DNA of 64,000 bases from an uncultured virus (IMG/VR IMGVR_UViG_3300010885_003647) (IMGVR_UViG_3300010885_003647), one strand, 5' to 3'. Shown: positions 975 to 31,436, counted from the first letter of the stretch. Numbers and translations are program-made. The notes: generated from the letters alone by a model not told the origin.

Positions 975-1091
975 TTAGTTCTCCCTGTGGTAGTAATGTG
1001 TTGGGTTGTTAAGCATTGATTTAATTGCTTGATCTATTGTGTCAAACCAAGCTATGTGCCAGCCGTCTTTTGTACGTACTTTAAAACTCAT
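975..1091 (-). CDS. small hypothetical protein (38 aa, not in ORF track)
   Basis: MSFKVRTKDGWHIAWFDTIDQAIKSMLNNPTHYYHREN fills the gap exactly, with an ATGA overlap. Confidence 0.6.
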   Translation of the reverse strand: MSFKVRTKDGWHIAWFDTIDQAIKSMLNNPTHYYHREN

Positions 1092-1777
1092 TTTAATCTC
1101 CAAGGGAGTATCGGTTTGTATCCGTTTTTCATTAGTTTGTTCCCTTCGATAAACATTTTAAGTAATCTTTCGGGCGCTCTGTAATTAACTGTAGCCTCTC
1201 CTGTGCATCCGAAGGCAGGCAAGCTTGTGCTGGCAGCTTTATAGAAGGGCCGATCTGCACCCCACTGACCATAAAAACTGTGCGCCACAGTAACCAAGAA
1301 TTCACGCCGAAAGCAATAACAATTAGTATCGACAAAATTGAGAGAATGGTCATAAAACGCCGGGTAGCGACCGAGTGATTCGCAATCATCATCACAAACA
1401 TATTGTCCTGATTCATCGCATATTCTCCTTAAACTATATGCCCACATTAGGTCTTTACTTTTAATCTTGTTAATCATTGTTTCTACATGGTTTGGCTCGA
1501 ACCAATTATCTTCGTCTAAGAACAAAATGTAATCAGCGTTTACCATTAGTGGCATAGCCGCATAAACTCGGTGTCCGTACCAGCCGTTACCACCTACGTT
1601 TTCAGGTAAAGTAATAAAGTCAAAACTGCCATTGAAAGAAAGAGGTAGTTTAGTTTCAACTTCTCCACCATCAAGCACCAACAGATGCTCTGTCTTAACA
1701 GTTTGATTTCTTACACTCTCTACGGCTTTAATTACCGTATCTTTCCCAGTAGTCGGGGTAATTACCATTACTCTCAT
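1088..1777 (-). CDS. family 2 glycosyltransferase
   Basis: VMVITPT...AVESVRNQT...VLDG...YILFLDEDNW (DxD) GT2 signature. Confidence 0.85.
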   Translation of the reverse strand: MRVMVITPTTGKDTVIKAVESVRNQTVKTEHLLVLDGGEVETKLPLSFNGSFDFITLPENVGGNGWYGHRVYAAMPLMVNADYILFLDEDNWFEPNHVETMINKIKSKDLMWAYSLRRICDESGQYVCDDDCESLGRYPAFYDHSLNFVDTNCYCFRREFLVTVAHSFYGQWGADRPFYKAASTSLPAFGCTGEATVNYRAPERLLKMFIEGNKLMKNGYKPILPWRLK

Positions 1778-2652
1778 TTCATCCTCGATGTAGCGTTTAT
1801 CACAAAAGCAATAGCCTCGTTAAGACTTGGTTCTTTGAGTAATAAGGGTTGCTCGTAGATATAGGTGTATTTAATAATGCTTTCTTCGTTTGCTTTAATA
1901 TCATTTATAAAGCTTGTCATCTTTTTAATTTCTTGGTAGTTCAAAAAAGCCTTGTAATTAAAGTCTTCAGCCACAGATATATCCCCGCTATAGATAGGTA
2001 CAGTACCTCCCGCATAAGCATCTAATAACTTCTCAGTAATGTATCCATCGTAGATTGAATTTTCAGGACACAAACAAAACTTGTACTCAGGTAGTATTGC
2101 AAACTTAGACTTACGCAAGGGGTTACTAAACATATTTCCATACCCATCTACCTGTTTGTACTTAGAGATAGAGTTGAACAGGTTTATACGCAAGCCTTCA
2201 GGGTTGTTAGCTATCAAGGCACAGAACTTATCCTTAATACTCATATCTAACCTACGAGTCTTTGTTAATGGATAGATAGGGATTAACTGTTCGTACCCAT
2301 GATTGTGGTGATTGTCGTGCCTAGGCTTTTGCTTGAACCCAGGCCAAGCTAATCGAGAATACCAAAGTGGTAAGCGGACATTACGCCCACCATAAGTATC
2401 GAAATCAAAAGAGAGGCTGTGATTGTAATTAATAAAACTTGGTCGTACATTTTCGCCGATAAAAGCAAGTGTCTTTTTGGGGTCAGTTTGTACATTCCCA
2501 AAGACAGAAGTAACACAGATATCAGCGGTGTAAGGATTATCGCTATACTCGATACTACCAAAACAAGAACGCAAAAAGTAATCAAAGAAGTCATCTTGAA
2601 AAGCCCCTTCCCAAAAGTTAGCTACAAATATCTTTTTCATTGTTTCATCCAA
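1774..2652 (-). CDS. family 10 glycosyltransferase (alpha-1,3-fucosyltransferase-like)
   Basis: YKFCLCPENSIYDGYITEKLLDAYAGGTVPIYSG matches the GT10 motif. The true start may be the MKKIF ATG. Confidence 0.85.
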   Translation of the reverse strand: MDETMKKIFVANFWEGAFQDDFFDYFLRSCFGSIEYSDNPYTADICVTSVFGNVQTDPKKTLAFIGENVRPSFINYNHSLSFDFDTYGGRNVRLPLWYSRLAWPGFKQKPRHDNHHNHGYEQLIPIYPLTKTRRLDMSIKDKFCALIANNPEGLRINLFNSISKYKQVDGYGNMFSNPLRKSKFAILPEYKFCLCPENSIYDGYITEKLLDAYAGGTVPIYSGDISVAEDFNYKAFLNYQEIKKMTSFINDIKANEESIIKYTYIYEQPLLLKEPSLNEAIAFVINATSRMK

Positions 2653-6806: not shown

Positions 6807-7613
6807 CTATTGAGTCAAAATAAAGTAGGTGTTTTCCCCATCCCTATAACCTATCTCAGGGAGTAAGGTGTTCTTGTCTACAAGTTTGAGTAAAGAGATA
6901 CGGTTTCTGGTGTCTTCAGGTAGCGCATCAACATCGCTTAGTTCTTTAGGTTCTAAGGCATGACCATTGGGGATAAAGATAGTCTTGTCAGGTCGTACCA
7001 TAATAGTATCGAACCTAGGCTTGATCTCTGCTTTACGCATCATCTCCTCGTATGCCTCAATACCTTGAGCCGCTTTCTTAAACTGCTCTGTTTCAAACTG
7101 AACCCCAAGAGATAGTAGGTGTTTAACTTCCTTGTATATCTCCTCATGCCCTATCCTAAAAGGATACACCGCTTTGTTATCTGTACCTATCCAAGACTCA
7201 TGCGCTCTCTCAGCGTTACGCTTACCCTTATTAGATATCTCATGCCAACCAAACGGCTCGATACTATCCATCGCAATCTTCAAAGCTTTCTTCAAGTCCT
7301 TAGTTCTACGAGATGAGTGCTCGTTACCCCAATGCCCAAACTTATCGTTCTGAATCTTGCGTGATGTAACTTTGTATTCCTTATCGTTACGAGTACCGTA
7401 TATCCACTCGACTACCCCTGCAAGGTCAGCTTCTTCTTCCGTAAACCTAGAATCTTTAAAGCGTAACTGCCAAAACTCAGGTTTGTATTGGCTTTGATGC
7501 GCCGATACTGTCAGACAGTACGGAATCTTTGCATGCTTTAACTCCATAGCATTTAAGAATTCCAATACAGGTTCGCTTAGTACAGTCTTATCTACATCTA
7601 TTGTGTTTAACAT
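6807..7613 (-). CDS. hypothetical early protein
   Basis: ORF-track 6807..7628; ATG at 7613 with GAGGAGG SD. Confidence 0.8.
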   Translation of the reverse strand: MLNTIDVDKTVLSEPVLEFLNAMELKHAKIPYCLTVSAHQSQYKPEFWQLRFKDSRFTEEEADLAGVVEWIYGTRNDKEYKVTSRKIQNDKFGHWGNEHSSRRTKDLKKALKIAMDSIEPFGWHEISNKGKRNAERAHESWIGTDNKAVYPFRIGHEEIYKEVKHLLSLGVQFETEQFKKAAQGIEAYEEMMRKAEIKPRFDTIMVRPDKTIFIPNGHALEPKELSDVDALPEDTRNRISLLKLVDKNTLLPEIGYRDGENTYFILTQ

Positions 7614-7614
7614 T

Positions 7615-7788
7615 TTATTCCTCCTCAATTAAGTCTGCTTCTTCACATACGAACTTTAAGTCCATATCCCATATACCAAACCTTGTGCGATTCACTTCTT
7701 TAATCGCCTCGAGTTCAGCTTGCACAGGGCTATTTGCTTCGACCTCTACATATGCAACCCCCGTTACTAACACTTGATACTTAGCCAT
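7615..7788 (-). CDS. small hypothetical protein (57 aa, not in ORF track)
   Basis: MAKYQVLVTGVAYVEVEANSPVQAELEAI..., with AGGAGG SD. Confidence 0.7.
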   Translation of the reverse strand: MAKYQVLVTGVAYVEVEANSPVQAELEAIKEVNRTRFGIWDMDLKFVCEEADLIEEE

Positions 7789-7797
7789 ACATCCTCC

Positions 7798-8637
7798 TTA
7801 GAACATAGACAAAATGTCGTCTACCTTAGACTTCACCGAACTACGGATAGCTTCGGACTCACGCACATCATCAGGGTTTATACCTACTAAAGCTTTCTCT
7901 AACTTCTGACGAGCCTGCTCTAACTTAGGGTCGCTTGTTATGTTCAGCTTAGTCAATAGCCCACATAGTTCTGACGCATTGGTAATAGTTGTATCGTAGA
8001 ACTTTTTCTTCTTCTCGTCTGTGTAATCTAAGCGATCACTCATGTGAGTTAAAGTTTCATGCAAGCGTTTCCATGCCTCACCCATAGCATCCTTTAGCTT
8101 GGACTCATAGTAGCTTTTGTATTGTGCTTCTAACTCTGCCTTAGCTTCTTCCTCTACATCTACTCGGAAGTCCCCTACATCAGGCACAGGTGCAAACACA
8201 TAACGGAAACCAAACTTACCACGCAAGGTTTCAACATTGGGATATTCCCCTCGGTCAAACAAATCGCCAAGCGTAAACGCAGAACTTGATACCAGTTGCG
8301 GATACTCCGTAAGGAAATCCTCCACCGCCTCGTTGTACTTGCGCTCAAACTCACCAAGCACCGCCTTGTAATCAAAGAAGTTCTTCATAGGTAGCAACCG
8401 ACTGCCACCATCTGACCAAGGTAAGGTGTTCTGATTGTTCCATGTACGCACCTCACTAACAACCTTCTGCACTTGCTCTAGCTTATCTGACCCTGCCAAT
8501 AACTTCTTATGGTAGTTGCCTGCCCTAGCCTTAGTACCCTTAGCACTATCTACTTCCTCGGATACTTTCTTGTCCATCTTACGACCTGTCCACATAGAAA
8601 TGTTTAGGTCTACTAACATCGCATTATTTCCAATCAT
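7798..8637 (-). CDS. DUF3150-like protein
   Basis: MLVDLNISMWTGRKMD...TLPWSDGGSRLLP...YPNVETLRGKFGF; usual neighbour of phage AAA/vWA modules. Confidence 0.65.
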   Translation of the reverse strand: MIGNNAMLVDLNISMWTGRKMDKKVSEEVDSAKGTKARAGNYHKKLLAGSDKLEQVQKVVSEVRTWNNQNTLPWSDGGSRLLPMKNFFDYKAVLGEFERKYNEAVEDFLTEYPQLVSSSAFTLGDLFDRGEYPNVETLRGKFGFRYVFAPVPDVGDFRVDVEEEAKAELEAQYKSYYESKLKDAMGEAWKRLHETLTHMSDRLDYTDEKKKKFYDTTITNASELCGLLTKLNITSDPKLEQARQKLEKALVGINPDDVRESEAIRSSVKSKVDDILSMF

Positions 8638-8639
8638 GA

Positions 8640-8837
8640 TTACTCTCCTTGTAGTGGTACTATCTTCATCTTTAACTTAATACTGTCTGACAGTATTTGG
8701 TCACACATAACCTCCATAGCATTTGAGTGCGTAAGGGTTACACCTATCTGTGATTCCATCTTCTTCTTCGCATCTAAAAACTTCTTCTTTGCATCAGTCT
8801 TTAACATCAGCGTTTCAAATCCTCTAGCTATTGCCAT
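8640..8837 (-). CDS. small putative ribbon-helix-helix DNA-binding protein
   Basis: Likely start MAIARG at 8837 (AAGGAG SD). FETLML-KTDAKKKFLDAKKKME-THSNAMEVMC fits a strand-helix-helix pattern. Confidence 0.5.
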   Translation of the reverse strand: MAIARGFETLMLKTDAKKKFLDAKKKMESQIGVTLTHSNAMEVMCDQILSDSIKLKMKIVPLQGE

Positions 8838-8848
8838 TTCATTTCTCC

Positions 8849-10030
8849 TTAATCTTGAATCCGTACACTCACACCCATAGGTGCAATCACGGTACTTGTC
8901 ATACCCCAAAACACAGGGTGTTGCCATTCACCCCACCCATTTATGAACCCATCCGTGAGAACAATTACACACTCAGGCTCTAGCTTATGCGCCTTGATAT
9001 ACTTGGGAATACAGTCAGCACTCGTACCACCACCCCCTGCAGGTTTAGTAGATGACATGATTGACTCATACTCACCTCGGTCATACTTCTCATGAGCACA
9101 TACTTCAGTATCCCAATACATAAGATCAATGCCTTCGGGCTGAACATGGTTGCATAAAGAGACCAGTTCTCCTAAGAATTGCCCGACCTCCTCCTGTCCA
9201 ATACTGCCTGACATATCAATAGCTACAACGATACGACCTACTGCCTCACCGATTGCGCTAGGCATATAGACACCTTGATCTACCCACCTACGATTTGGTC
9301 TGCGCCATGTAGAGTTGTCCTTGTCATTACATATAGAGTTCACAAAGTCAGCTAACACTTCCTTCCAATTAACCTTAGCTTCCATCGCCTCAGTAATCTC
9401 TCTAGGAATATTGCCGTCAAGTTTGCCTGCTAGTAATGCGCCCTGTCTTAAAGCTTGATCGACTTCACGAGCCAATGCTTGCTTCTCGTCTTCGGACATT
9501 TCATCTGCACCTTCCCAATCGTGCTCGTCAAAGCCCTGCCCATCCGCTTGTTCGCCCTCGCCACTACCATTGCCTTTTCCACCTTTACCTCCCTCTTGTT
9601 TTAATAAACGGAACACCTCGCCTGCATCCATGCCCCGATACTTCTCATCTAAGCAACCGCCTTCAGGTAGCGACACAGATACACCTTGTGGGTCTGAATC
9701 ATGAATCATTAAGTTGATTACATAATCACATGCCATGTTGGCATACTGAGGGTTTTGTTTATAGAGATGTTTCCATACAGTCGTATGACGGAAAGCCTTA
9801 TGTAGATTCTCATGAAGTATCAAGCCCTTCAAGTCAGAGTCTTTTAGTTTGTCTACGAACTTACGACCATAGTAAGTGTTGCGCCCATCGGTACATGCAG
9901 TTTGTATCTCGTCACTCACCTCAGTCTTACCGAGCATGAAGATGCCTGAATACAAACAATACTTAGGGTCATTCATCAATGCCACATGGGACTTTTGAAC
10001 TCGTTGTTCTGCAGTTAATCTAGACATCAT
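8849..10030 (-). CDS. metallopeptidase-like plus vWA domain protein (DUF2201-like)
   Basis: TACTDG, LILHENLH (HExxH), NMACDYVIN, MIDAS DMSGS, GGGGT, LTDG. Confidence 0.85.
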   Translation of the reverse strand: MMSRLTAEQRVQKSHVALMNDPKYCLYSGIFMLGKTEVSDEIQTACTDGRNTYYGRKFVDKLKDSDLKGLILHENLHKAFRHTTVWKHLYKQNPQYANMACDYVINLMIHDSDPQGVSVSLPEGGCLDEKYRGMDAGEVFRLLKQEGGKGGKGNGSGEGEQADGQGFDEHDWEGADEMSEDEKQALAREVDQALRQGALLAGKLDGNIPREITEAMEAKVNWKEVLADFVNSICNDKDNSTWRRPNRRWVDQGVYMPSAIGEAVGRIVVAIDMSGSIGQEEVGQFLGELVSLCNHVQPEGIDLMYWDTEVCAHEKYDRGEYESIMSSTKPAGGGGTSADCIPKYIKAHKLEPECVIVLTDGFINGWGEWQHPVFWGMTSTVIAPMGVSVRIQD

Positions 10031-10224
10031 TTCTCCTTGTTAATACTGTCTGACAGTATTGGGTTTAGTCCTTCAGGTAAAAGGGTCATGCCCTTCTCAC
10101 TTCTCAATGAAGCAAAGGGCAGGCTAGGTACTCTAACTAAGTGATAGCCTTTGTTATAGTTAAGCATCGTGACCTGTCCTACCTCGCCGTCTGTTATTAC
10201 CCAATCACCTTTTAGAATAGCCAT
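10027..10224 (-). CDS. hypothetical protein
   Basis: 65-aa ORF between the AAA and vWA genes. Confidence 0.6.
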   Translation of the reverse strand: MAILKGDWVITDGEVGQVTMLNYNKGYHLVRVPSLPFASLRSEKGMTLLPEGLNPILSDSINKEK

Positions 10225-11330
10225 TGGTTATCGGTAGCCCATTTCACAAAATCTTTATTGGACACCGCCATAGCTTGCTTGGTAGTAGACTTCACGATTG
10301 AACGAGCAAACAACGCTTGTAATTCTTTATCCAATCGGTCTGCATACTTGAGCCACTTAGGTAGCGTATCCTTATCCACCCTAGTAATAGCTGAGAATGT
10401 CAAGATACATTTAGCCACCGCATCATCAGGTACTTTTGCTGAGTTAGGGCTATCCATAATTGCTTCCCATGTAGGTAGCTTATCGACCACAGTAAAGAAC
10501 GCTTGCATATCACGAGCCGCACTCTCACCTATCGTGCCAGCCAACGCAGTAATAGTCACGCTATCACCGAGCAAGTCACGCTTCTTGGCAATATGACTAG
10601 CCTTCTCTAAACTACGAGGGGTGACGAACGCAGTCTGACCTGCCTTAGTTGGGTTAAAGATGTATACATTATCTTTTTGTGCAGGGTCAGTATACGACTC
10701 GAGTGCATGGGGGAATTGTTTAACCCACGCAATAATCTCAGGTGCAATATCATTCTCTACTGCCCACGCACCCCAAGAGTCTGCATCTAACGAACCATCA
10801 GCACCGAACCCTGCGTGTGGTTTACGCACAGTCACAAAGCAAACACGATTGCGAGCATGAGCCTCAAGACTATCACCCACACCATCAGTTGCTAAGTTAG
10901 TTGTACCGAACACAATAGAACCTTCGGGTAAGTGCATATCACCAATGCGTTTCTCTAACATCAGAGTAAGCAAGACATTCTTAACCGCCTTCATAGCCTT
11001 ACCGATCTCGTCTAACATAACGATGACAGGCTTGCCTGATTGGAATTTAAACCTTGCGTTTGGTGCAAACTTTGTGACTTTAAGAGATGATGCCAGTTTC
11101 TCTAGTACTACCTCCTCTGTGTACGGCAAAGCAAAGTCACCTAGGTCTAACAGGGTGCAGTCGATGTACGCTACCTCATAATCAGGGAAACGCTTAGACA
11201 CCGCCTTGAGCATAGAACTCTTACCAATTCCAGGCTCACCCTGACCAATGACAGTCACATCAGCACCTACTGTTGCTATCGCATTTGCAAACTCGTTAAG
11301 AGTTAAAGAACTACCGAACTTGATACTCAT
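10212..11330 (-). CDS. AAA+ ATPase (MoxR/dynein-related type)
   Basis: Walker A GEPGIGKS, Walker B VMLDE, sensor TTN, TPRS. Confidence 0.9.
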   Translation of the reverse strand: MSIKFGSSLTLNEFANAIATVGADVTVIGQGEPGIGKSSMLKAVSKRFPDYEVAYIDCTLLDLGDFALPYTEEVVLEKLASSLKVTKFAPNARFKFQSGKPVIVMLDEIGKAMKAVKNVLLTLMLEKRIGDMHLPEGSIVFGTTNLATDGVGDSLEAHARNRVCFVTVRKPHAGFGADGSLDADSWGAWAVENDIAPEIIAWVKQFPHALESYTDPAQKDNVYIFNPTKAGQTAFVTPRSLEKASHIAKKRDLLGDSVTITALAGTIGESAARDMQAFFTVVDKLPTWEAIMDSPNSAKVPDDAVAKCILTFSAITRVDKDTLPKWLKYADRLDKELQALFARSIVKSTTKQAMAVSNKDFVKWATDNQWLF

Positions 11331-11442
11331 ATACTTCTCCTTGATTTAAAATTAAAAAATACAACCCCACTTTGACAAAAAACCCAGTACTGTCTGACAG
11401 TATTGGGCTACAACAACATCTACTTCTTTTAGTTATACATCT

Positions 11443-11471
11443 ATTATAACGCTATACTACCTCTGTGTCAA
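11443..11471 (-). promoter_or_regulatory. perfect consensus sigma70 promoter
   Basis: TTGACA-17 bp-TATAAT on the minus strand. Confidence 0.9.
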
Positions 11472-11483
11472 TAGGCTAGGTTC

Positions 11484-12443
11484 TTACACAATGTTCGTTG
11501 CAACAACACCCAACGCTACTGCTCTAGTTGTATACACATCAGCTATCTGCTTAATGAAATAGTTAATGCGATTGTCCACAGTCTTGTAGTTGTATTGATA
11601 CTCACGGATATTTGTTTTATCCACAATGGCATTACCCTGATAGTCGGTGCGTTCTACATCAATCGTTTTACATACTCGACTGTCGTTATGCTCACTACCT
11701 GAACAGATCATACAAAGAAGTTTAGGGTAGTCATCTTCAGTCGCATTACACATAGCTTCATATATATCCTTTGATGTAGTTTCACCAACCGAGCCTGATA
11801 ACTTCCAACTGTCGTAGGTAACACCATCTAACTGATAAGCCTTGCGCCCATAATAGTCAGCCTTACCTGTTGCGTGCTGATCTACTAAGTCATTACTAAT
11901 CCACCCATCAGCCAGTTTAAGCATGATCTTGGCATAATCTCTAAAGCCCTTGAGTTTATCCCTAGCCGTTTTCATCTTGGCTTTATCTATTACTTTCTGA
12001 GTAAGACTCTTAGGGTTTCGAACTGAGTAGCAATCTAACCCATCCACCTTATAATAGTCAAATATCGTAGCACTACCACTATCTATTACATACGACTGCT
12101 CTCTATATGTAATCCATATCTTGTTGTACTTCTTATAACAACGCATATCCTTGGGCAAATACCGATTGATAAACTCAGCCGTTGTAGGTGTGTCGTACCC
12201 ATCAGTCTTAACATGAATACTGCCATCAGCCGTATACAAAACACAATCTGTCTTATATAAGTGAGCACCATAAGCCTCACCACTAACGATGTCTGTTGCT
12301 ACTTCATCTACGATATAACGCTGAACTACTTGCTCCCAATCCCTACTGCGCCTACCGATTGGTCTGCACTCTACTGACCTACCTCTAATAGGTTTAGTGT
12401 TGTTAAAACGGTTTTTAAAATTCTCGAACATACTTAAACTCAT
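11484..12443 (-). CDS. hypothetical early protein
   Basis: 319-aa ORF with AAGGAG SD. Confidence 0.8.
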   Translation of the reverse strand: MSLSMFENFKNRFNNTKPIRGRSVECRPIGRRSRDWEQVVQRYIVDEVATDIVSGEAYGAHLYKTDCVLYTADGSIHVKTDGYDTPTTAEFINRYLPKDMRCYKKYNKIWITYREQSYVIDSGSATIFDYYKVDGLDCYSVRNPKSLTQKVIDKAKMKTARDKLKGFRDYAKIMLKLADGWISNDLVDQHATGKADYYGRKAYQLDGVTYDSWKLSGSVGETTSKDIYEAMCNATEDDYPKLLCMICSGSEHNDSRVCKTIDVERTDYQGNAIVDKTNIREYQYNYKTVDNRINYFIKQIADVYTTRAVALGVVATNIV

Positions 12444-12491
12444 TTGATTCTCCTTGGATTAAATACTGTCTGACAGTATTGGTTTGGTTGG

Positions 12492-12785
12492 TTATTTAAA
12501 AACATAATGTAATGCGGTTAAAACAAAAACAAAGGGTACAAACACAATCAACGCACCCCACATAGACCCTGCTAGAAAAGAAACCAGTTGCTCTAAATCT
12601 GTCTCACTTCTCCAAATAGGTGTGGCATAGTCGGCATCTCTAAACGCTTCGCTTGCTGATCGGTGCGTCTTATTGTGGTGAATATAAAACGCAGGGTCTT
12701 GCGTTGATTGGTATTGAATAGTGTTGTTGGGTGTGGCTTTTTTGGTTCTCTTAGTTGTTTTCATCTTCTTTCCTTTCAGGTTCAA
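12492..12785 (-). CDS. hypothetical protein with C-terminal transmembrane helix
   Basis: Hydrophobic C-terminus WGALIVFVPFVFVLTALHYVF. Confidence 0.65.
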   Translation of the reverse strand: MNLKGKKMKTTKRTKKATPNNTIQYQSTQDPAFYIHHNKTHRSASEAFRDADYATPIWRSETDLEQLVSFLAGSMWGALIVFVPFVFVLTALHYVFK

Positions 12786-13026
12786 TTAACTCATACTGCG
12801 AATCATCTGCGTTCGGGTCATACTTAATAGGCTTGTCATACTTCAAGGTGCTAAAAAAGTCCTCGGCAGTCATGCCATGACGGAGCAACAATCGCCTTAA
12901 CTTACCTAATGCACGCAATTCGATCTGTCTTACCCTCTCTCTACTAATGTTCATAGCATCTGCAATCTCAGCTAAGGTCATGCAAGGGTCAGGGATTTGC
13001 GCCCTCTTTTCGTATGGTTTACTCAT
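12751..13026 (-). CDS. stand-alone sigma-70 region 4 protein
   Basis: TLAEIADAMNISRERVRQIELRALGKLR closely resembles RpoD region 4.2. Confidence 0.8.
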   Translation of the reverse strand: MSKPYEKRAQIPDPCMTLAEIADAMNISRERVRQIELRALGKLRRLLLRHGMTAEDFFSTLKYDKPIKYDPNADDSQYELIEPERKEDENN

Positions 13027-13229
13027 GTTGTCCTCTTTGGGTTAGTTGTTGCAAGTTCTTTGGGGTTATGTATGTATTGATACGCACCCTTATTAAATGG
13101 TATAGCGACTGTGAACCCTTCTGATACTGCTCGAGCCACATCAATCCCACACTCTAGGCAAAACTTATAGCCTAGTTCCCATCTACCCATCGGGTATTCA
13201 TCTCCACAACATCTACATATATTCTTCAT
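13023..13229 (-). CDS. small Zn-finger protein
   Basis: CRCC...CLEC cysteine pairs. Confidence 0.7.
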   Translation of the reverse strand: MKNICRCCGDEYPMGRWELGYKFCLECGIDVARAVSEGFTVAIPFNKGAYQYIHNPKELATTNPKRTT

Positions 13230-13405
13230 TTCCCTCTCCTTATTTCTCTAGGCTTATTCTCGTTCCGATATGGCGCTTTGTAAAGAACCCAAACCACATA
13301 ACCCAATACAGGAATGGACAACAACAAAGCCACCGAAACGGATAACTGCTCTATTAATATAGCTACTAAAATAAAACCCACAATCAATGCAATTACTTTC
13401 ATCAT
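13226..13405 (-). CDS. small two-TM membrane protein (59 aa, not in ORF track)
   Basis: MMKVIALIVGFILVAILIEQLSVSVALLLSIPVLGYVVWVLYKAPYRNENKPREIRRGK, with GAGGAG SD and ATGA overlap. Confidence 0.65.
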   Translation of the reverse strand: MMKVIALIVGFILVAILIEQLSVSVALLLSIPVLGYVVWVLYKAPYRNENKPREIRRGK

Positions 13406-13420
13406 CTTCTCCTCTTGTTA

Positions 13421-13834
13421 AAAACACTCAATCAGTCAGGCTATTGCTAACCTGACCTCAAAATGCTCTTTGTTTGTTTGCCTTCTGCTAGTTTGTCGCA
13501 GTCCTTGTTAGGGGTTAGGGCATGGGTAGGGTGAAGTGCGTGTGGTCAGATGGATTTAGGTTTTGAGGGTTCTGATACTGTCTGACAGTATTTCACCCAA
13601 TTAGGTTTATTAAACCTAAACATATCCCACACCTCACTACTACCGCAGAGATACTGCTCGCCAAGAAGATACAAACCCGCTTAAATGGGAAATCAAGGCT
13701 ACGCCTACTCTGCACTCTTACTACGCACAGTCTGTATTCCCGTGCGCCTCAAAGCATTTACCTAGTTGTTAATGAACTAATACTGTCTGACAGTATTTGG
13801 TTTTGTTGTGTCCCTTGACCCAACTCGACTCTAT
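13421..13834 (-). ncRNA. putative structured early leader or ncRNA
   Basis: About 400 nt with no long ORF downstream of a consensus promoter. It has several complementary stems, a boxA-like GTTCATTAACAA and a GCAA-tetraloop hairpin. Confidence 0.4.
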
Positions 13835-13840
13835 ACCTCT

Positions 13841-13869
13841 ATTATAACACTATGTTAAGTCTGTGTCAA
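13841..13869 (-). promoter_or_regulatory. perfect consensus sigma70 promoter
   Basis: TTGACA-17 bp-TATAAT; flanks are near-identical to the 11443-11471 promoter (CCTATTGACACAGA...GTTATAATAG). Confidence 0.9.
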
Positions 13870-13903
13870 TAGGGCAGAACTCGGTTTAGGTTTGGGGGTT
13901 GCT

Positions 13904-14329
13904 TTAATCAAAGTCATCAAGTATTTGTTGCATGCGCTTATTAACTTCGGGGTCTTTAGAAACTGGTATCGGTTCTTGTCTTAATTCTTGGGTTGGGGTT
14001 GGTGCATACAAGTATTTACCAATGATGCTTACGGCTAGTTTGTTCCGAGTAGTTTTCTTTAACAACGCAATCCTTTCTAATTGATCTATTGCGTGCTTGG
14101 GCATATGTAGGTTTAACTGTGCCATCTCTGTGAATGACTGTGGTTTGATCTTTTGTTTATGAGCCTGTTTTTGTGCTCCTGTCATCTCCTTTATATTGAA
14201 GATATCCGCACCTACTTTGCCACGCTTGTACCTACGATATGCCGCTACATATGTGACATCGAAATGTTTTACCCACTCATGCAAGCCTCGCACTTCTCCG
14301 TTGATCTCAATATCTATGCTATGTGTCAT
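13904..14329 (-). CDS. putative DNA-binding protein (N-terminal HTH-like plus RHH-like domain)
   Basis: IEINGEVRGLHEW...AAYRRYKRG and QLNLHMPKHAIDQLERIALLKKTTRNKLAVSIIGKYL. Confidence 0.6.
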   Translation of the reverse strand: MTHSIDIEINGEVRGLHEWVKHFDVTYVAAYRRYKRGKVGADIFNIKEMTGAQKQAHKQKIKPQSFTEMAQLNLHMPKHAIDQLERIALLKKTTRNKLAVSIIGKYLYAPTPTQELRQEPIPVSKDPEVNKRMQQILDDFD

Positions 14330-14349
14330 CTGTTTTACCTTTCTGTTTA

Positions 14350-14880
14350 GTTAGACCATGTTCGGTCAATCTAGATTATACATGGTTGTCATTGTAAAGG
14401 CTAGAGGGTATTTTAAATGAACAAATAAGGCTTGGTTCATACAATGACTGACCAAGTTCACTCAGACCAGAACGGGCTGAGAACCATATACTAATTGAGG
14501 TTAGGTATTAAAAGGTTAGAAATGTTCATATGAACCTGAAAGTATGTCGCCCTACAAAAGGCTCTTTCGAATACTGTCAGACAGTACGAAAGCTTAACAC
14601 AGTAAAGGGAAAAAAATGTTTGGTAGTCATATATTTATATTTATATGAACATTTTAATAATAATAGATAGATAGATAGAGAAGAAGCCTTATGAAACAAG
14701 GACTTGCAAGTCAGAAAACCGTGTTCTGGTCTGAGTGAACCTGTTCAGTCCAATCGCCCGCAAACCCTTTGTTTATATAGTGTTCCATGTTCACGCCAAT
14801 AGTGAACCTAGTGAACCTGATTCTATGTTCAGTCTTTACCCTTCTGAAAACTGGTTTCTTTCGTACTGTCAGACAGTATT
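14350..14880. other. putative replication origin / iteron-rich non-coding region
   Basis: About 17 GAAC/GTTC units, a perfect 18-bp inverted repeat (14456-14473 / 14723-14740), an AT-rich core at ~14628-14680 and two palindrome copies. Confidence 0.45.
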
Positions 14881-15022
14881 TGGTTTGCCTCGCCTACTTC
14901 GCCTGCACCTCGCTGACCCTAAATCATTGCGCCCTTCGAAAAAGAAAAAGCAGCAGCAAAAAGAATTTAAAAATCTGTCGGCTCGCCGACCTAGATGACA
15001 CCAGTTCCCTAAAAAAAGGGCG

Positions 15023-15050
15023 AAAAAAAACCCCACCGATTTGGTGGGGT
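15023..15050 (-). terminator. rho-independent terminator
   Basis: ACCCCACC-AAATC-GGTGGGGT followed by a T run on the minus strand, just after the 15067..15546 gene. Confidence 0.85.
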
Positions 15051-15066
15051 GTGAACTGCTTGGTGA

Positions 15067-15546
15067 TTACTGCTTGGTATCACCTTCGTAATCATCTAAT
15101 CCGTCTAGCAAGTAGCTGGCTAGTGATGCAGTCTTGTCATTCTCTTTGAACTTATTAAACATACTACGCAAACCCTTGACGATATCTTCTATCTTGGCAT
15201 CACCTTTGAACTTCACTCCAGTAATCGGAGCAGTCTTACCAGCTTGTGATCCCTTTGCCTTGCGTACTGCATTTACATCATACTGCTTACCCTCATTCAC
15301 TGCCTTGCGGAAAGTGGTCAGGTTATTCTTGACAGTCTGCTCAGCTAAGCCCAACTTCTCTTGTGATTCTTTAAAGCGGAGCATTACAGCACAACCACTC
15401 TTGACAGTACCGATTGGCTTATTCTTGCGGAGCTTGCGAATCTCGGAGCACTTGCTATCTATCTGCTTATTGATAGTGCCAGCTTGTCCAACTAATGCGC
15501 CTACTTCAGAAGCTAAGGTTTCTTGTTTAGAGTATTTAACAGTCAT
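15067..15546 (-). CDS. basic hypothetical protein, first gene of the early arm
   Basis: 159 aa, AAGGA SD, own promoter and terminator. Confidence 0.8.
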   Translation of the reverse strand: MTVKYSKQETLASEVGALVGQAGTINKQIDSKCSEIRKLRKNKPIGTVKSGCAVMLRFKESQEKLGLAEQTVKNNLTTFRKAVNEGKQYDVNAVRKAKGSQAGKTAPITGVKFKGDAKIEDIVKGLRSMFNKFKENDKTASLASYLLDGLDDYEGDTKQ

Positions 15547-15600
15547 GGTATTTCCTTTATATATAATCGGCTTGGCGGTATTGCCTTACTCGATGACTCT

Positions 15601-15629
15601 ATTGTGCCTGTACCATAGCGCTATGTCAA
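15601..15629 (-). promoter_or_regulatory. sigma70 promoter
   Basis: TTGACA-17 bp-CACAAT on the minus strand. Confidence 0.75.
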
Positions 15630-15946
15630 GGACTATTTGATTTTCCCATACTGTCGAACAGTATTTTTCCAGCCCGATATCGCGACCCCCTACCGCCTAA
15701 TTTGGCCCCCTTGGTCCCGCCCGCACCCTGTGCTGTATTTTGCACAGTCGATTACTATTTTTTTGAAAAATACCCCCCTATAGGGTTTACCCTTAAAAAC
15801 ACCCCCCACTATATAAAAAAATTAAAAAATCTATATACATCAAAAAGATATACATAAAAAGTGCATGAAACTTTAATAAAACGAGGTGTAAAAAAAAGTT
15901 TCCCGAACGGGGTTTTTGTAAAGAAAAAGTAAAAGATTGTAAAGAA

Positions 15947-26697: not shown

Positions 26698-28281
26698 ATG
26701 GCAGATGTAACCATAGAAAACCTACCCTTAGCGAACGTCATTGTTCCTAGCGTCGATGTACTGCCTTTGGTTACAGGTACTGGCACACTGATTACAAAGA
26801 AGGCAACTGCCAATGAAGTTGTTGCTTCCATACTAGAAACTGATCCATTATTTTCAGTTAGTGCTGTAGCTACAGGAACTCTTCCAGACGGCTCTACAGT
26901 AATCATTAATACCAACGGCACAGTAAGCGCGGTAACTGGAAACGCTGCAGTAGTAGGTAGCGATATTGTTTTTAGTGGATCATGTGTAAACCTACAAGCT
27001 TGCTGGATTACAGAATCCAATGTAATTGCCATCGTATATCAAAGTACTGTTGACGACACCATTCAGATTTATTCAGGTCAAGTCTCAGGAACAACCATTA
27101 ACTTTAACTATGCTGGTCCTGTTACATTAGCTACAGGCGCTCCCGATGGCGGAACATTCCCAACCATTTGCACGTACTATGGAAGCAGCCTTGTAATCGT
27201 TTCATACTCTCCAGTATCTGACAATCAACTATATGTAGTTGGTGTTGAAATTGATAGCGGCGCTAACATTACTGATGTAGGAACTCCAGTATTAGTGGAT
27301 TCTACATACACAACCAATCAGGCTGTAAGCGATTCTTATTTTGCTTTGCTAAATGTGTTTGATGGAGCTTTTTTCATTGCCTATCAAACAACTGATGGCG
27401 GTATCCGCGCGGCTTCAGTAACGGCATTTGGTACATCATTAACTTTATCTGGCTCGTATCAGCTATCTACATCAACCTATACTCCAGATATTACTCTAGG
27501 GTATTACAGTCCTTATTTGGTGGCTTTCTACCAAAACGGTAGTGGAGCAGGTATTACGATTGGCACGTTTAATGGGTCAACATTAACTGCAATTAATACC
27601 ATCAATTTGACAGGTTTTAACCTTACTCAAAATACATTTGCTTCTGTATTGCGATCTGATGGCTCTTTACTTGTGGCATTTGCTGAGGTAAATACAGGTG
27701 TTTTAGATGCCGTTGTTATCAGTATTAACTACACAACCTTTACTGCGACAATCCTAAACCGACAGCTTATTGATACATCTCCAGCAGTTGGGCGCAATGC
27801 AATTGCTATTTACCAATACCCTAATGGAACAGCCGACATCTTTTATGAAGTTACTGCAACAGGGCTATTAAAAGCAGCTAGAATCCAAGTGAACGCTGGT
27901 GGCATTATTAAAGTCACAGACGAGCTAGAATTAGTTCAAAGCGCTTTTTCTACAGCTTTATCTGTATCTCCTACAGGAACTGATTACCAGACTGTAGTAT
28001 TTTTTGAGTCTAGTTCAGATGGACAAAACTTCTTGATATACAACGCTGCAAACACCAACATGACTGACACAAACTTTATTGGCTTTTCTTATGGTGACTA
28101 CACCAATGGTCAAACTGCAATCGTTAAAACAATCGGAAGCGCAATAGCTGGACTTAGTGGTTTAGTTACAGGCTCGCATTACTACGTTACTGAAACAGGC
28201 GCTTTAAGCACTACACCTGGAAATCCAACAGTCAATGCTGGCACTGCCATTTCTACAACCGCTTTAACAATGAATGGCTAG
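26698..28281 (+). CDS. virion appendage protein, paralog 1 of 3
   Basis: Collinear similarity with the next two ORFs. Confidence 0.75.
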   Translation: MADVTIENLPLANVIVPSVDVLPLVTGTGTLITKKATANEVVASILETDPLFSVSAVATGTLPDGSTVIINTNGTVSAVTGNAAVVGSDIVFSGSCVNLQACWITESNVIAIVYQSTVDDTIQIYSGQVSGTTINFNYAGPVTLATGAPDGGTFPTICTYYGSSLVIVSYSPVSDNQLYVVGVEIDSGANITDVGTPVLVDSTYTTNQAVSDSYFALLNVFDGAFFIAYQTTDGGIRAASVTAFGTSLTLSGSYQLSTSTYTPDITLGYYSPYLVAFYQNGSGAGITIGTFNGSTLTAINTINLTGFNLTQNTFASVLRSDGSLLVAFAEVNTGVLDAVVISINYTTFTATILNRQLIDTSPAVGRNAIAIYQYPNGTADIFYEVTATGLLKAARIQVNAGGIIKVTDELELVQSAFSTALSVSPTGTDYQTVVFFESSSDGQNFLIYNAANTNMTDTNFIGFSYGDYTNGQTAIVKTIGSAIAGLSGLVTGSHYYVTETGALSTTPGNPTVNAGTAISTTALTMNG

Positions 28282-28284
28282 ATC

Positions 28285-29871
28285 ATGGCAGATATAAGAA
28301 TCACCGCGCTACCAGCAGCTACCGTTATTAATCCGGATGTTGATGTATTCCCATTGGTTACAAATAGCGGCACAGTTACAAGTAAATCTACTATAACTCA
28401 GTCATTTGGAGTCGCATTAAACTCAATAAACATACCATCTATTACTGCCACAGTAGGTTCATCAGGCATTACTATAGGCAAGCCTATAATTCTTAATAGC
28501 GATGGCACAATCAGTCAGGTTGCTGGAACTAATTCAGTGGTAGGCGCATCAGGTAGCGTTGGTAACGTTAGCACTCCTTATGTCAATATGCAGGGCGCAT
28601 ATATAGGCGGTGTTTCACAAGTCCTTGTTGTGTATCAAGAAACATCTACCAATACTATTCAGGTAATGGCTGGAACACTTGCAGGAACAACAATTACTTT
28701 TGGAACTCCAACAACTTTAGCTACAGGTGCAACTAGCGGTGGAACTTTCCCGACTATAACCTATGTTCAAAATACTACTAACCAAGCGGTAGTTAGCTAT
28801 TCTTTAGGGTCGACTGGCGTACTGTACGCTAGGGTTATCCAAGTTACTAATGTAGGTGTAATTACCGTAGGCACAGCTTTCCAAGTAGATTCAGTAAATA
28901 CAACAAATCAAGCCGTAGCAGCTTCTGCTTGGGTTGGTAGTCCTACGGTTGGAAAAGTCTGCCTTGCATATCAAACAGTTAGTGCTGGAATCTATGCAGC
29001 TACATTTACTCTAAGTGGCACAACAATATCTAGCGTTTCTGCACAGCAAATATCCACAACAACAACAGGTGAGATAGACCTGATTAATGTTAACGGGACT
29101 AACGTAGTAGCCCTATATCAAAACGATGTTACAGGGACTGTAAGCTTTTTAACTTGGAATGGTACGGGTTTAACTTTTAATGCTACTACCGAAATATCAG
29201 GTCTTAATTTATCGGCAAATACATTTGCAGCAAGCGCTTTAACTAGCGGTAACTTGCTTGTATCTTTTGCTGAACATACTACTGGAGTTTTAAGCGCTTT
29301 TGTATTGGGACTTAACTACACTACTTATGCAGTAACATTCGGTGGTAGACAGCTCATTGATACAGCTCCTGCGCTTGGGCGGGGTACGCTTAGTAACTAC
29401 ACATACCCTAACGGTACAGTTGGCATTTTTTATGAGTCACAAGCATTAAACGCTTTAAAGACAACCGTTGTGCAGGTAAATAGCGGAAACACTCTCAAGA
29501 TTGATGGAGTTTTGGCAATAGCTCAAAATGCTGCTGCTACTGCTCTTTATACATTCCCTACGATAAATGCTTTGCAAAACGTAGTGCTTTACTTCTCAAG
29601 CGTAAATAGCCAAAAGTACATGGTATATACAGCATCGTCTACTAACCTGACTGACTCAAACTTTCTTGGTTTTAGTGCTAATGGTTATAGTGCTGGCTAT
29701 GCTTACGGTATTGTATATACTTATGGTCGTTGGATTTTAGGTCAAACAGGATTAACTCCTGGACTGCGTTACTATGTTACTGAAACAGGCGGCCTATCCT
29801 TAACACCAGGAGTCCCAGAAGTTGCCGCAGGAACAGCCATTTCTACAACCTCTTTATTGATGAACGCTTAA
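28285..29871 (+). CDS. virion appendage protein, paralog 2 of 3
   Basis: Shared motifs MAD..I..LP, TFPTI, RQLIDT.P, YPNGT, NF.G.S, YYVTETG. Confidence 0.75.
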   Translation: MADIRITALPAATVINPDVDVFPLVTNSGTVTSKSTITQSFGVALNSINIPSITATVGSSGITIGKPIILNSDGTISQVAGTNSVVGASGSVGNVSTPYVNMQGAYIGGVSQVLVVYQETSTNTIQVMAGTLAGTTITFGTPTTLATGATSGGTFPTITYVQNTTNQAVVSYSLGSTGVLYARVIQVTNVGVITVGTAFQVDSVNTTNQAVAASAWVGSPTVGKVCLAYQTVSAGIYAATFTLSGTTISSVSAQQISTTTTGEIDLINVNGTNVVALYQNDVTGTVSFLTWNGTGLTFNATTEISGLNLSANTFAASALTSGNLLVSFAEHTTGVLSAFVLGLNYTTYAVTFGGRQLIDTAPALGRGTLSNYTYPNGTVGIFYESQALNALKTTVVQVNSGNTLKIDGVLAIAQNAAATALYTFPTINALQNVVLYFSSVNSQKYMVYTASSTNLTDSNFLGFSANGYSAGYAYGIVYTYGRWILGQTGLTPGLRYYVTETGGLSLTPGVPEVAAGTAISTTSLLMNA

Positions 29872-29873
29872 TC

Positions 29874-31436
29874 ATGGCAGACGTAAAAATATCAGAACTT
29901 CCTGCAGCTAGTACTATTAATAATTCAGTTGACGTTTTACCGATTGTTACAGATGGCGGTTTAGTTACAAGCAGAGCAACACCATACCAAGTCCTTGGCG
30001 CAGTATTAGACGCTACTCCTATTCCTTCTATTGGCGCGGTAGCAACAGGTGCTATTGGTGCAGGTTATACAGTTATTTTAAATAGCGATGGGACAGTAAG
30101 CGCAGTAACTGGAACTGCTTCAGTAATTGGAACGCCAGGTACTATTGTTTCTGGGATTAAAAACGCGCAGGGTGTATATGTACCTAATGGTGGACGTGTA
30201 GTTGTTGTATACCAAGAAACAACCAACCACTATATTCAGCTAATTCTTGGAACCCTTTCAGGATCTACAATTATTTTTGGAAGCCCAACAACCATTGCAA
30301 CAGGTGACTTGGACGACTTAACTTTCCCAACGATATGCGTTTATGAAGGAAGTGCTCTTATATGGGTTACCTACTCGCCAACATCAGATAACCAGCTTTA
30401 TATTATAGGCGTTGATACTTATGAAGGAGTTATTTCTTTAGGTACGCCTGTTTTAGCAGACTCTACATACTTAACAAGCCAAGCAGTAGCTTGCTCTCTT
30501 TGGGTTGGATCTCTTACCATTGGTGGAAAACCTTGCATTGCTTACCAAACAACTGACGGCGGTATTCGTGCAACTACATTTTCCATGAGTGGAACTTCCA
30601 TAACAAGTGTTAACGCTTCAATTGAGTTGTCTACAAGCACCACTACTGAGATAGATGGACATCAGATTGATGGAACGAATGTAGTGTTTTTCTTTACAGA
30701 AGGAAGCACAGGGGCGGTAAGTTTTTGCGAGTTTTCAGGTAGCCTAACGCTTTCTTCAACAACCTCATTGCCAAGTCTTAATCTAGCCCAAAGCACATAC
30801 TCTACTTCAGTATTAGATGACTTTAACTTACTCTTAGCGTTTGCTGAAGCAACCACTGGGGTTTTAGACGCGGTTGTATTAGAGCTTAATTACACCACCT
30901 ATGCTGTGACATTCGGTAACAGACAGCTTATTGATACAACTCCAAGTACTGGCTATGGCGCTATTAGTACTTACACCTATCCTAATGGAACTGTTGGTAT
31001 TTTCTACAATTCTCAGGCTCTTGATAACTTAAGAACAACTGTAGTGCAGGTTGACGATGGAAACATCATTAAAGTTGATGGCGTTACAACCCTAGTTCAA
31101 GGGGGAAATTCTAGCTACATGTGGACATTCCCTCTAGCTAACCCTTTGCAAAACGCAATTTTGTACTACAACGGGGTTCAAAACTACGTAACTTATACAG
31201 CTTCAACAACCAACCTGACAGATAAGAACTTTATCGGTTATTCCTATGCAGACTACGCCAATGGCGATACCGCTATTATCCAGACTCTTGGTAGTACAAT
31301 TGCTTCACAAGCAGGGTTAACCCCTGGAGTGCAGTACTATGTTACCGAAACTGGAGACCCAAGTGCTACCCCAGGAGTTCCCGTAGTAAATGCAGGGACA
31401 GGACTGACCACAACCTCTTTATTATTTAACAACTAA
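29874..31436 (+). CDS. virion appendage protein, paralog 3 of 3
   Basis: Same shared motifs as paralogs 1 and 2. Confidence 0.75.
   Translation: MADVKISELPAASTINNSVDVLPIVTDGGLVTSRATPYQVLGAVLDATPIPSIGAVATGAIGAGYTVILNSDGTVSAVTGTASVIGTPGTIVSGIKNAQGVYVPNGGRVVVVYQETTNHYIQLILGTLSGSTIIFGSPTTIATGDLDDLTFPTICVYEGSALIWVTYSPTSDNQLYIIGVDTYEGVISLGTPVLADSTYLTSQAVACSLWVGSLTIGGKPCIAYQTTDGGIRATTFSMSGTSITSVNASIELSTSTTTEIDGHQIDGTNVVFFFTEGSTGAVSFCEFSGSLTLSSTTSLPSLNLAQSTYSTSVLDDFNLLLAFAEATTGVLDAVVLELNYTTYAVTFGNRQLIDTTPSTGYGAISTYTYPNGTVGIFYNSQALDNLRTTVVQVDDGNIIKVDGVTTLVQGGNSSYMWTFPLANPLQNAILYYNGVQNYVTYTASTTNLTDKNFIGYSYADYANGDTAIIQTLGSTIASQAGLTPGVQYYVTETGDPSATPGVPVVNAGTGLTTTSLLFNN

Follow-up and report, generated by a model that had tools for sequence, protein, structure and literature searches.

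Lineage-specific palindromes in the early arm of an uncultured tailed phage, and a candidate regulator that changes with them

Introduction

What is a palindrome of only 15 bp doing in ten copies along one arm of a phage genome, at gene boundaries and inside genes alike? The question is raised by a stretch of 64,000 nucleotides from an uncultured virus (IMG/VR IMGVR_UViG_3300010885_003647), referred to in full as the window, which makes up most of the genome of a tailed phage. The palindrome, TACTGTC-W-GACAGTA, is found in the minus-strand early genes. An initial annotation of the same sequence took it for the loading site of a dimeric protein that protects, pulls in, partitions or roadblocks this DNA in the manner of parS or matS.

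The palindromes are a real, selected and lineage-specific operator set with a testable candidate binder. Close relatives have other, unrelated palindromes at matching positions, and a 159-aa protein encoded by the first early gene, here called fam18, exchanges its N-terminal domain along with them. The reading that we favor, with a probability of roughly one half, is that these are operator-like sites in duplex DNA, recognized by a co-evolving phage dimer, most likely fam18, that would act as a brake or roadblock on early transcription.

Results

Ten sites in the window

Nine exact copies of TACTGTCWGACAGTA and one further copy at 15649, TACTGTCGAACAGTA, are present in the window (Table 1), as the initial annotation had reported, and no exact palindrome appeared in 100 dinucleotide shuffles. 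The tenth copy was the only addition when up to two mismatches were allowed and, with the center base free, it departs from the motif at 1 of 14 specified positions. The further claim that the rest of the sequence is free of the motif also held, with no copy outside 7506–15663 of the window. There are no sites with two or three mismatches (five shuffles each gave one to six sites at up to three mismatches), and lone half-sites are not enriched, with 3 observed against about 8 expected. The sites are real and all-or-none.

The placement of the sites relative to genes and promoters was likewise as first described: three copies dictate protein sequence inside small or larger reading frames, two fall at +34 to +53 past consensus promoters, and one lies just upstream of a −35 element. 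Sites ahead of the 319-aa, VWA and DUF3150 genes directly precede ribosome-binding sites. The intervals on which a regular spacing had been proposed are arithmetically right, but the tiling has no fixed period; its evenness arises because one site stands at each boundary of genes that are 279–393 aa in length. A run of T follows the site in only one of the ten copies (11388), and all copies in the genome have the same sequence. As a set they conform neither to intrinsic terminators, with a G+C-rich stem and a U run, nor to repetitive extragenic palindromic (REP)-like hairpins, whose copies are free to vary.

Site 4 lies inside a longer hairpin (11380–11420, minus strand) that is followed by T6, and the same arrangement occurs in two relatives (L220 at 6417 and L221 at 6640, with T6–T7). 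This hairpin between promoter and ATPase gene has an attenuator-like look, and the T run is missing in two other relatives.

Conservation and selection at the nucleotide level

The exact motif is present in at least 218 IMG/VR stretches among the matches listed. Five relatives of 63–65 kb (CheckV completeness 97–100 per cent, four of them estimated at 100 per cent) carry 14, 11, 13, 11 and 5 copies at up to two mismatches, all confined to one arm, and a reversed-pattern control in the same five genomes returned none. All four bases, A, T, G and C, are seen at their center. In relatives the sites stand at the gene boundaries that hold them in the window, not always on the same side of the small open reading frames (ORFs), and their spacing shifts with gene order. 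At the position of site 10 a site is found in all eight of the representative loci with a one-base gap that extend so far.

The initial annotation had pointed to synonymous positions at in-gene copies as informative, and they are: in 12 distinct homologous contexts of site 1, none of the 5 third codon positions within the site varies, against 13 of 13 in the flanking codons. Across 217 distinct contexts the conservation of flanks ends about 5 bp from the palindrome, and from +17 on it is near background; the sites are therefore not mobile elements. Selection acts on them as nucleotide sequence, within genes too.

Replacement of the palindrome in place

A survey of 80 loci around ATPase homologues (67–100 per cent identity) found the window's palindrome in only part of them, while the other loci with multi-copy palindromes have a different one at the same boundaries. 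About 12 palindrome classes were found. Besides that of the window they include TAATGTC-N-GACATTA, TACCGTC-N-GACGGTA, TATAGTC-(N)-GACTATA, TCAAGTC-N-GACTTGA, TTAAGTA-N-TACTTAA, TTAAGTC-N-GACTTAA, TTCACAC-N-GTGTGAA, CCCGTA-N-TACGGG, ATTAAC-N3/4-GTTAAT, GTTATCA-NN-TGATAAC and ATTAAAC-NN-GTTTAAT.

The switch can separate very close phages. The ATPase is 97.6 per cent identical between a TATAGTC and a TCAAGTC phage, and 95.4 per cent identical between a TACTGTC and a TTCACAC phage. The swap is in place, with up to 39 of 40 flanking positions identical around replaced palindromes; averaged over all orthologous sites in a crude alignment the picture is less clear-cut, with flanks at 61 and 72 per cent against cores at 48 and 69 per cent. 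That unrelated palindromes stand at the same places in near-identical phages leaves, for this reason, next to no room for a host factor such as LexA, and lineage-specific replacement calls instead for a phage-encoded partner that changes together with the sites.

Between L291 and L289, and between L255 and L254, every palindrome is rewritten in place (for example, flanks 77/80 and core 10/15), and six to eight sites switch together between near-identical genomes.

A first early protein that changes with the palindrome

In both close pairs that differ in palindrome, fam18 is the most diverged syntenic gene of at least 100 aa. Its identity is 57 per cent in the pair with 95.4 per cent ATPase identity and 52 per cent in the pair with 97.6 per cent, and its neighbors are mostly at 83–98 per cent. 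The main block of DNA without similarity in these pairs is about 300 bp within fam18 and codes for the N-terminal domain, whereas the C-terminal 50 residues remain 80–94 per cent identical across the palindrome switch. Among 31 distinct fam18 proteins, none of 271 pairs with different palindromes exceeds 50 per cent identity in the N-domain, with the C-domain reaching up to 94 per cent. When the comparison is held to C-domains of at least 65 per cent identity, the N-domain is 46–98 per cent identical in 37 same-class pairs versus 29–40 per cent in 10 different-class pairs. The D palindrome still accompanies D-type N-domains that are joined to a different C-domain.

The distribution of the gene points the same way. 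All 19 loci that carry 7-1-7 palindromes and extend to the terminase junction have it, against none of 31 whose palindromes are wider-spaced or unclassified; 28 of these have an unrelated 175-aa family at that position. Since fam18 varies in step with the palindrome, it is probably the phage regulator that recognizes the sites.

An AlphaFold2 model of fam18 (mean predicted local distance difference test, pLDDT, 76.5; predicted template-modeling score, pTM, 0.51) has a variable four-helix N-domain, a disordered K/G-rich linker, a conserved C-terminal helical hairpin and an acidic tail. The protein is predicted to form a homodimer, with an interaction prediction score from aligned errors (ipSAE) of 0.72 against 0.01 for the best control, contact agreement of at least 96 per cent between runs and partner pLDDT of at least 78. 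Among proteins of solved structure, 20 of 30 that are pairs of one chain and 1 of 23 that are single chains reached that mark; since the prediction was run on a self-made alignment, the counts apply only roughly. The dimer model supports binding by fam18 and stops short of showing it.

Other candidate binders

Other early proteins were considered and set aside. A 141-aa protein (13904–14329) with a weak Arc-like PHROGs match, which on a reading of its sequence may resemble a ribbon–helix–helix (RHH) or helix–turn–helix (HTH) protein, has just one homologue (in L245, 33 per cent identical) among 19 other loci of class A, the window's class. The Zn-ribbon protein (13023–13229 family) is about 65 per cent identical overall in the TACTGTC/TTCACAC pair and near-identical barring an 11-aa insertion. 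A 91-aa Sigma70_r4 protein is missing from the class-A loci G002, G005, L251 and L255, and homologues of such mini-proteins also occur in the ATTAAC class, where the palindrome is unrelated. A weak Atlas lead (0.84) to DUF3102 for fam18 itself received no confirmation from Pfam.

The Sigma70_r4 mini-proteins of the window are two free-standing paralogues, both on the minus strand, of 91 aa (12751–13026; Pfam E 9e-12) and 67 aa (2637–2840; Pfam E 5e-9), with 46 per cent mutual identity. The helix S/T-RERVRQ(I/L)E is near-invariant across nine class-A homologues, with L in one. These proteins might mimic or compete with region 4 of the host sigma factor at −35 elements.

Genome context

No GenBank phage matches the window at the nucleotide level, and the closest large terminase subunits (TerL), from marine phages, are only 55–56 per cent identical. 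The first early protein of the window is also encoded on a contig of 68,379 bp. Minus-strand genes run from 1 to about 15546, and the terminase, portal, head and tail genes are on the plus strand from 16212. Alongside the genes of Table 1 the minus-strand arm encodes DNA polymerase A, glycosyltransferases and an Hjc-like nuclease. It holds three strong sigma-70 promoters and one strong terminator. Family scans of the window's proteins comprised 79 queries, 32 against PHROGs and 47 against Pfam, with many ORFs in both and not every ORF included; Rfam and tRNA scans of the window gave no match.

Table 1. Positions of the palindromic sites and associated features within the window.
Feature	Position	Strand	Remarks
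Site 1	7506..7520	.	within gene 6807–7628 (273 aa), encodes YCLTV
Site 2	8681..8695	.	3' end of small ORF 8640–8927 (ILSDSI), 43 nt ahead of DUF3150 start
Site 3	10044..10058	.	3' end of ORF 10027–10224 (ILSDSI), 13 nt ahead of VWA/metallopeptidase start
Site 4	11388..11402	.	about +34..+48 from promoter 11471–11443, 57 nt ahead of ATPase start
Site 5	12464..12478	.	20 nt ahead of 319-aa gene start
Site 6	13576..13590	.	non-coding leader downstream of second promoter
Site 7	13781..13795	.	leader, about +39..+53 from promoter 13869–13841
Site 8	14572..14586	.	borders iteron/AT-rich non-coding block
Site 9	14864..14878	.	borders iteron/AT-rich block; flank forms inverted repeat with site 8
Site 10	15649..15663	.	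one mismatch; ends 19 bp upstream of −35 of first early promoter
First early promoter	15601..15629	-	TTGACA-17-CACAAT; drives candidate regulator gene
Sigma-70 promoter	13841..13869	-	consensus TTGACA-17-TATAAT, 12/12, extended TG
Sigma-70 promoter	11443..11471	-	consensus TTGACA-17-TATAAT, 12/12, ahead of ATPase gene
Terminator-like hairpin	15030..15050	-	intrinsic type, 8 pairs, T8; ends transcription unit of candidate regulator
First early gene (fam18)	15067..15546	-	159 aa
Early-gene block	7798..12443	-	site ahead of each gene; includes 319-aa gene
AAA ATPase gene	10212..11330	-	
DUF2201 VWA/metallopeptidase gene	8849..10030	-	
DUF3150 gene	7798..8637	-	

The non-coding block at 14400–14900, flanked by sites 8 and 9, contains nested inverted repeats (28-nt arms at 14446–14473/14723–14750 and 27-nt arms at 14520–14546/14628–14654), GTTCAC/GTGAAC iterons and an AT-rich core. 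GTTCAC clusters of a similar kind are present in relatives, and the block could be a replication origin. Just upstream of site 10, a G+C-rich stretch (15670–15760) is conserved in L219, L220 and L224 and has no Rfam match.

Elsewhere in the window, GT2 and GT10 (fucosyltransferase-like) genes adjoin the DNA polymerase gene in the replication arm (1088–2652, minus strand). Three tandem genes of about 525 aa at 26698–31436 (plus strand), the first two of which are paralogues with 44 per cent identity and without a Pfam family, probably encode tail or fiber proteins. A 1890-aa protein (54923–60595, plus strand) has LPD38 (large polyvalent protein domain) as its sole Pfam match.

Discussion

DNA or RNA, and other explanations

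There is reason to think that the sites are read as duplex DNA. The innermost pair is complementary in every 7-1-7 class, although it would be unable to pair across a loop of one nucleotide; the center base bears no fixed relation to the direction of transcription, the sense strand showing only A in one relative and only T in another, which rules it out as a polarity mark; and site 10 precedes the first promoter, and no consensus promoter that might transcribe it was found further upstream. The free center base, the palindromy of the innermost pair and the position of site 10 together favor recognition of the duplex by a symmetric dimer. The same three features speak against the palindrome being a hairpin in a polycistronic early mRNA, through which a phage RNA-binding protein or endoribonuclease would control translation, processing, stability or termination, as does the use of one sequence for all copies in a genome without compensatory variation. 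We consider such an RNA role unlikely, though it deserves to be taken seriously, since several observations would fit it, some of which also weigh against an operator in duplex DNA. About half of the class-A sites (65 of 139, related loci kept) lie 11–60 nt upstream of a Shine–Dalgarno sequence and start codon, the ATTAAC-N4-GTTAAT class has its Shine–Dalgarno sequence inside the palindrome spacer, the stem is extended by the flanks (AAA/TTT, or ACT/AGT in another lineage), and site 11388 tops a terminator-like hairpin with a T run right after a promoter, as do its orthologues in two relatives.

The parS- or matS-like reading, in which the sites organize, protect, pull in or partition the DNA that enters first, is improbable. 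It agrees with the restriction of copies to one arm in the window and in the five relatives, with a predicted dimeric early protein that covaries with the sites, and with the two sites at the possible origin; the sites nonetheless track promoters and gene boundaries, one per cistron boundary and with no fixed period, searches for PF00589 and for prophage relatives gave no integrase or plasmid-prophage signs, and the 79 protein queries, which cover part of the ORFs, gave no match to ParB, MatP or ParA (about 4 kb of the genome is outside the window). What stands of the initial annotation, by inference, is recognition by a symmetric (dimeric) factor, here read as phage-encoded, and the roadblock is favored over loading, pull-in, partition or protection. 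It is comparably hard to see the palindromes as middle-gene promoters or activator sites, to which a phage factor would bring RNA polymerase for transcription of the next gene. Sites do precede genes, and the outer hexamer TACTGT fits TAnnnT, but no conserved element follows at a fixed distance downstream in the 217 distinct contexts, which speaks against promoters; moreover, the gap from site to start can be as small as 11–13 nt (2–4 nt in one class), the distance to upstream promoters varies over 52–79 nt, and no phage RNA polymerase was matched among the scanned proteins. N4-type hairpin promoters were considered too, and no RNA polymerase family was found among those proteins, the 1890-aa protein included. 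Least probable of all, to the point of being very remote, are sites of a host regulator or selfish or neutral palindromes without function. The half-site TACTGT does resemble that of the Escherichia coli SOS box, as had been remarked. LexA boxes are spaced as CTGT-N8-ACAG, with one motif per host; the arrangement here is CTGT-N3-ACAG, 5 bp too short, and because relatives with 95–98 per cent identical core proteins use unrelated palindromes at the same places the likeness must be coincidental. Frozen synonymous sites are at odds with neutrality.

How firmly the sites can be assigned to fam18 is a separate matter, and several points count against the assignment. The protein belongs to no known DNA-binding family: Pfam, PHROGs and the PDB (sequence and profile) gave no match, Foldseek gave none at E ≤ 0.001, and the best VIA Z score of 6.2 (root-mean-square deviation, rmsd, 3.7; 79 aligned) is at noise level for helical bundles. 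Its N-domain also evolves fast within a class, at 46–55 per cent identity where the C-domain is at 83–90 per cent, and fam18 may simply be carried along with its lineage as an arms-race protein. N-domains of the window type and the L255 type are 21–30 per cent identical, yet both go with the same 15-bp core; the base at flank position −1 is A in 84 per cent of window-type sites versus T in 85 per cent of L255-type sites, and flanks also track lineage. The association is carried by three independent switch events, and relatedness confounds and inflates the larger counts. The binder could also be encoded outside the compared loci.

A possible shut-off of early genes

If fam18 is the partner of these sites, a simple course of events may be envisaged. 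Its gene would be expressed at once from its own sigma-70 promoter, in a unit closed by a terminator. The accumulating dimer would then fill the site just upstream of that promoter, together with the sites 20–50 nt past two consensus promoters and those at nearly every cistron boundary. Filled sites would damp initiation and block elongating host RNA polymerase along the initial ~8 kb of this arm, so that early genes would be shut off at a set time.

A PF00589 (tyrosine) integrase is found in none of the four relatives estimated to be 100 per cent complete, a search that left serine integrases and plasmid prophages outside its scope, and no prophage relatives were confirmed among 185,579 species genomes searched with ATPase patterns of close relatives. 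Temporal control within a lytic cycle therefore appears more likely than immunity. It may further be proposed, tentatively and at odds that fall well short of even, that fam18 founds a new family of homodimeric DNA-binding proteins, with a swappable N-terminal specificity domain, a conserved C-terminal effector and orthogonal pairs in each lineage.

Comparison with known systems

The motif strings of the palindrome were found in no paper of the collection searched; a search there for perfect intergenic palindromes in early regions of phages returned nothing, and a broader one only analogues. Repeated palindromes that often lie off the −35 and −10 elements and are bound by a dimeric global regulator are familiar from the conserved inverted repeats of the temperate phage phiC31 and from the KorA and KorB operators of plasmid RK2, whose binders are of known helix–turn–helix or ParB type. 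No sequence or family link to either was found here.

The stoperator system of Cluster A mycobacteriophages such as L5 and Bxb1 is the closest in logic. Stoperators are short sites in many copies, located in short intergenic regions of a transcribed arm beyond the promoter operator, and among related phages the motif and the immunity repressor have diverged in step (PMC6550527). Elongation too is terminated there by the repressor, which binds as a monomer to a site that is asymmetric and has a set orientation (PMC9283540). The present sites resemble them in number and placement (10 in the window and 5–14 per relative, mostly at cistron boundaries). A corresponding covariation of site and binder may exist here, as suggested by the association of the motif with the N-domain of fam18 over three independent switch events. 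The present sites differ in being a perfect 7-1-7 palindrome with a free center base, and in their candidate binder, which belongs to no known family and is predicted to be a homodimer; and where stoperators keep a temperate prophage silent, the four complete relatives have no PF00589 integrase.

Other multi-copy elements of phages are less close. The lytic T1-like phages T1 and Stevie have 16–20 intergenic 22-bp repeats whose role is described as unknown (PMC4319613); these too are multi-copy intergenic elements of a lytic phage, but they are asymmetric and oriented with transcription, and that account reports neither a cognate protein nor switching between lineages. In Cluster K mycobacteriophages, start-associated sequences (SAS) and their extended form (ESAS) are multi-copy elements just upstream of start codons, given as being of unknown function, and the ESAS, which are inverted repeats, recur at the same gene families from one relative to another and differ in some bases by subcluster (PMC3203893). 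As described there, the ESAS are imperfect 17-bp repeats with a spacer of 4–13 bp and are tied to the asymmetric 13-bp SAS, whereas the element here is a single compact and perfect palindrome that also occurs within genes and upstream of a promoter.

Implications

Only for temperate mycobacteriophages is there a good understanding of multi-copy operator sets that stop transcription, and the function of comparable repeats in T1 and Cluster K phages is not known. The present phage family offers about 12 natural specificity classes, replacement in place between near-identical genomes and a specific candidate binder whose fold matches none known, such that a small set of purified proteins and reporters would now suffice to test directly the role of these repeats in a lytic phage. 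Should the binder be confirmed, the family would supply orthogonal pairs of dimer and palindrome. On the more tentative reading of a new protein family with a swappable N-domain, all 5–14 sites of a genome would be rewritten in place upon exchange of that domain, a natural toolbox of orthogonal repressor/operator pairs would be at hand, and lytic relatives that co-infect a cell could keep their early programs private.

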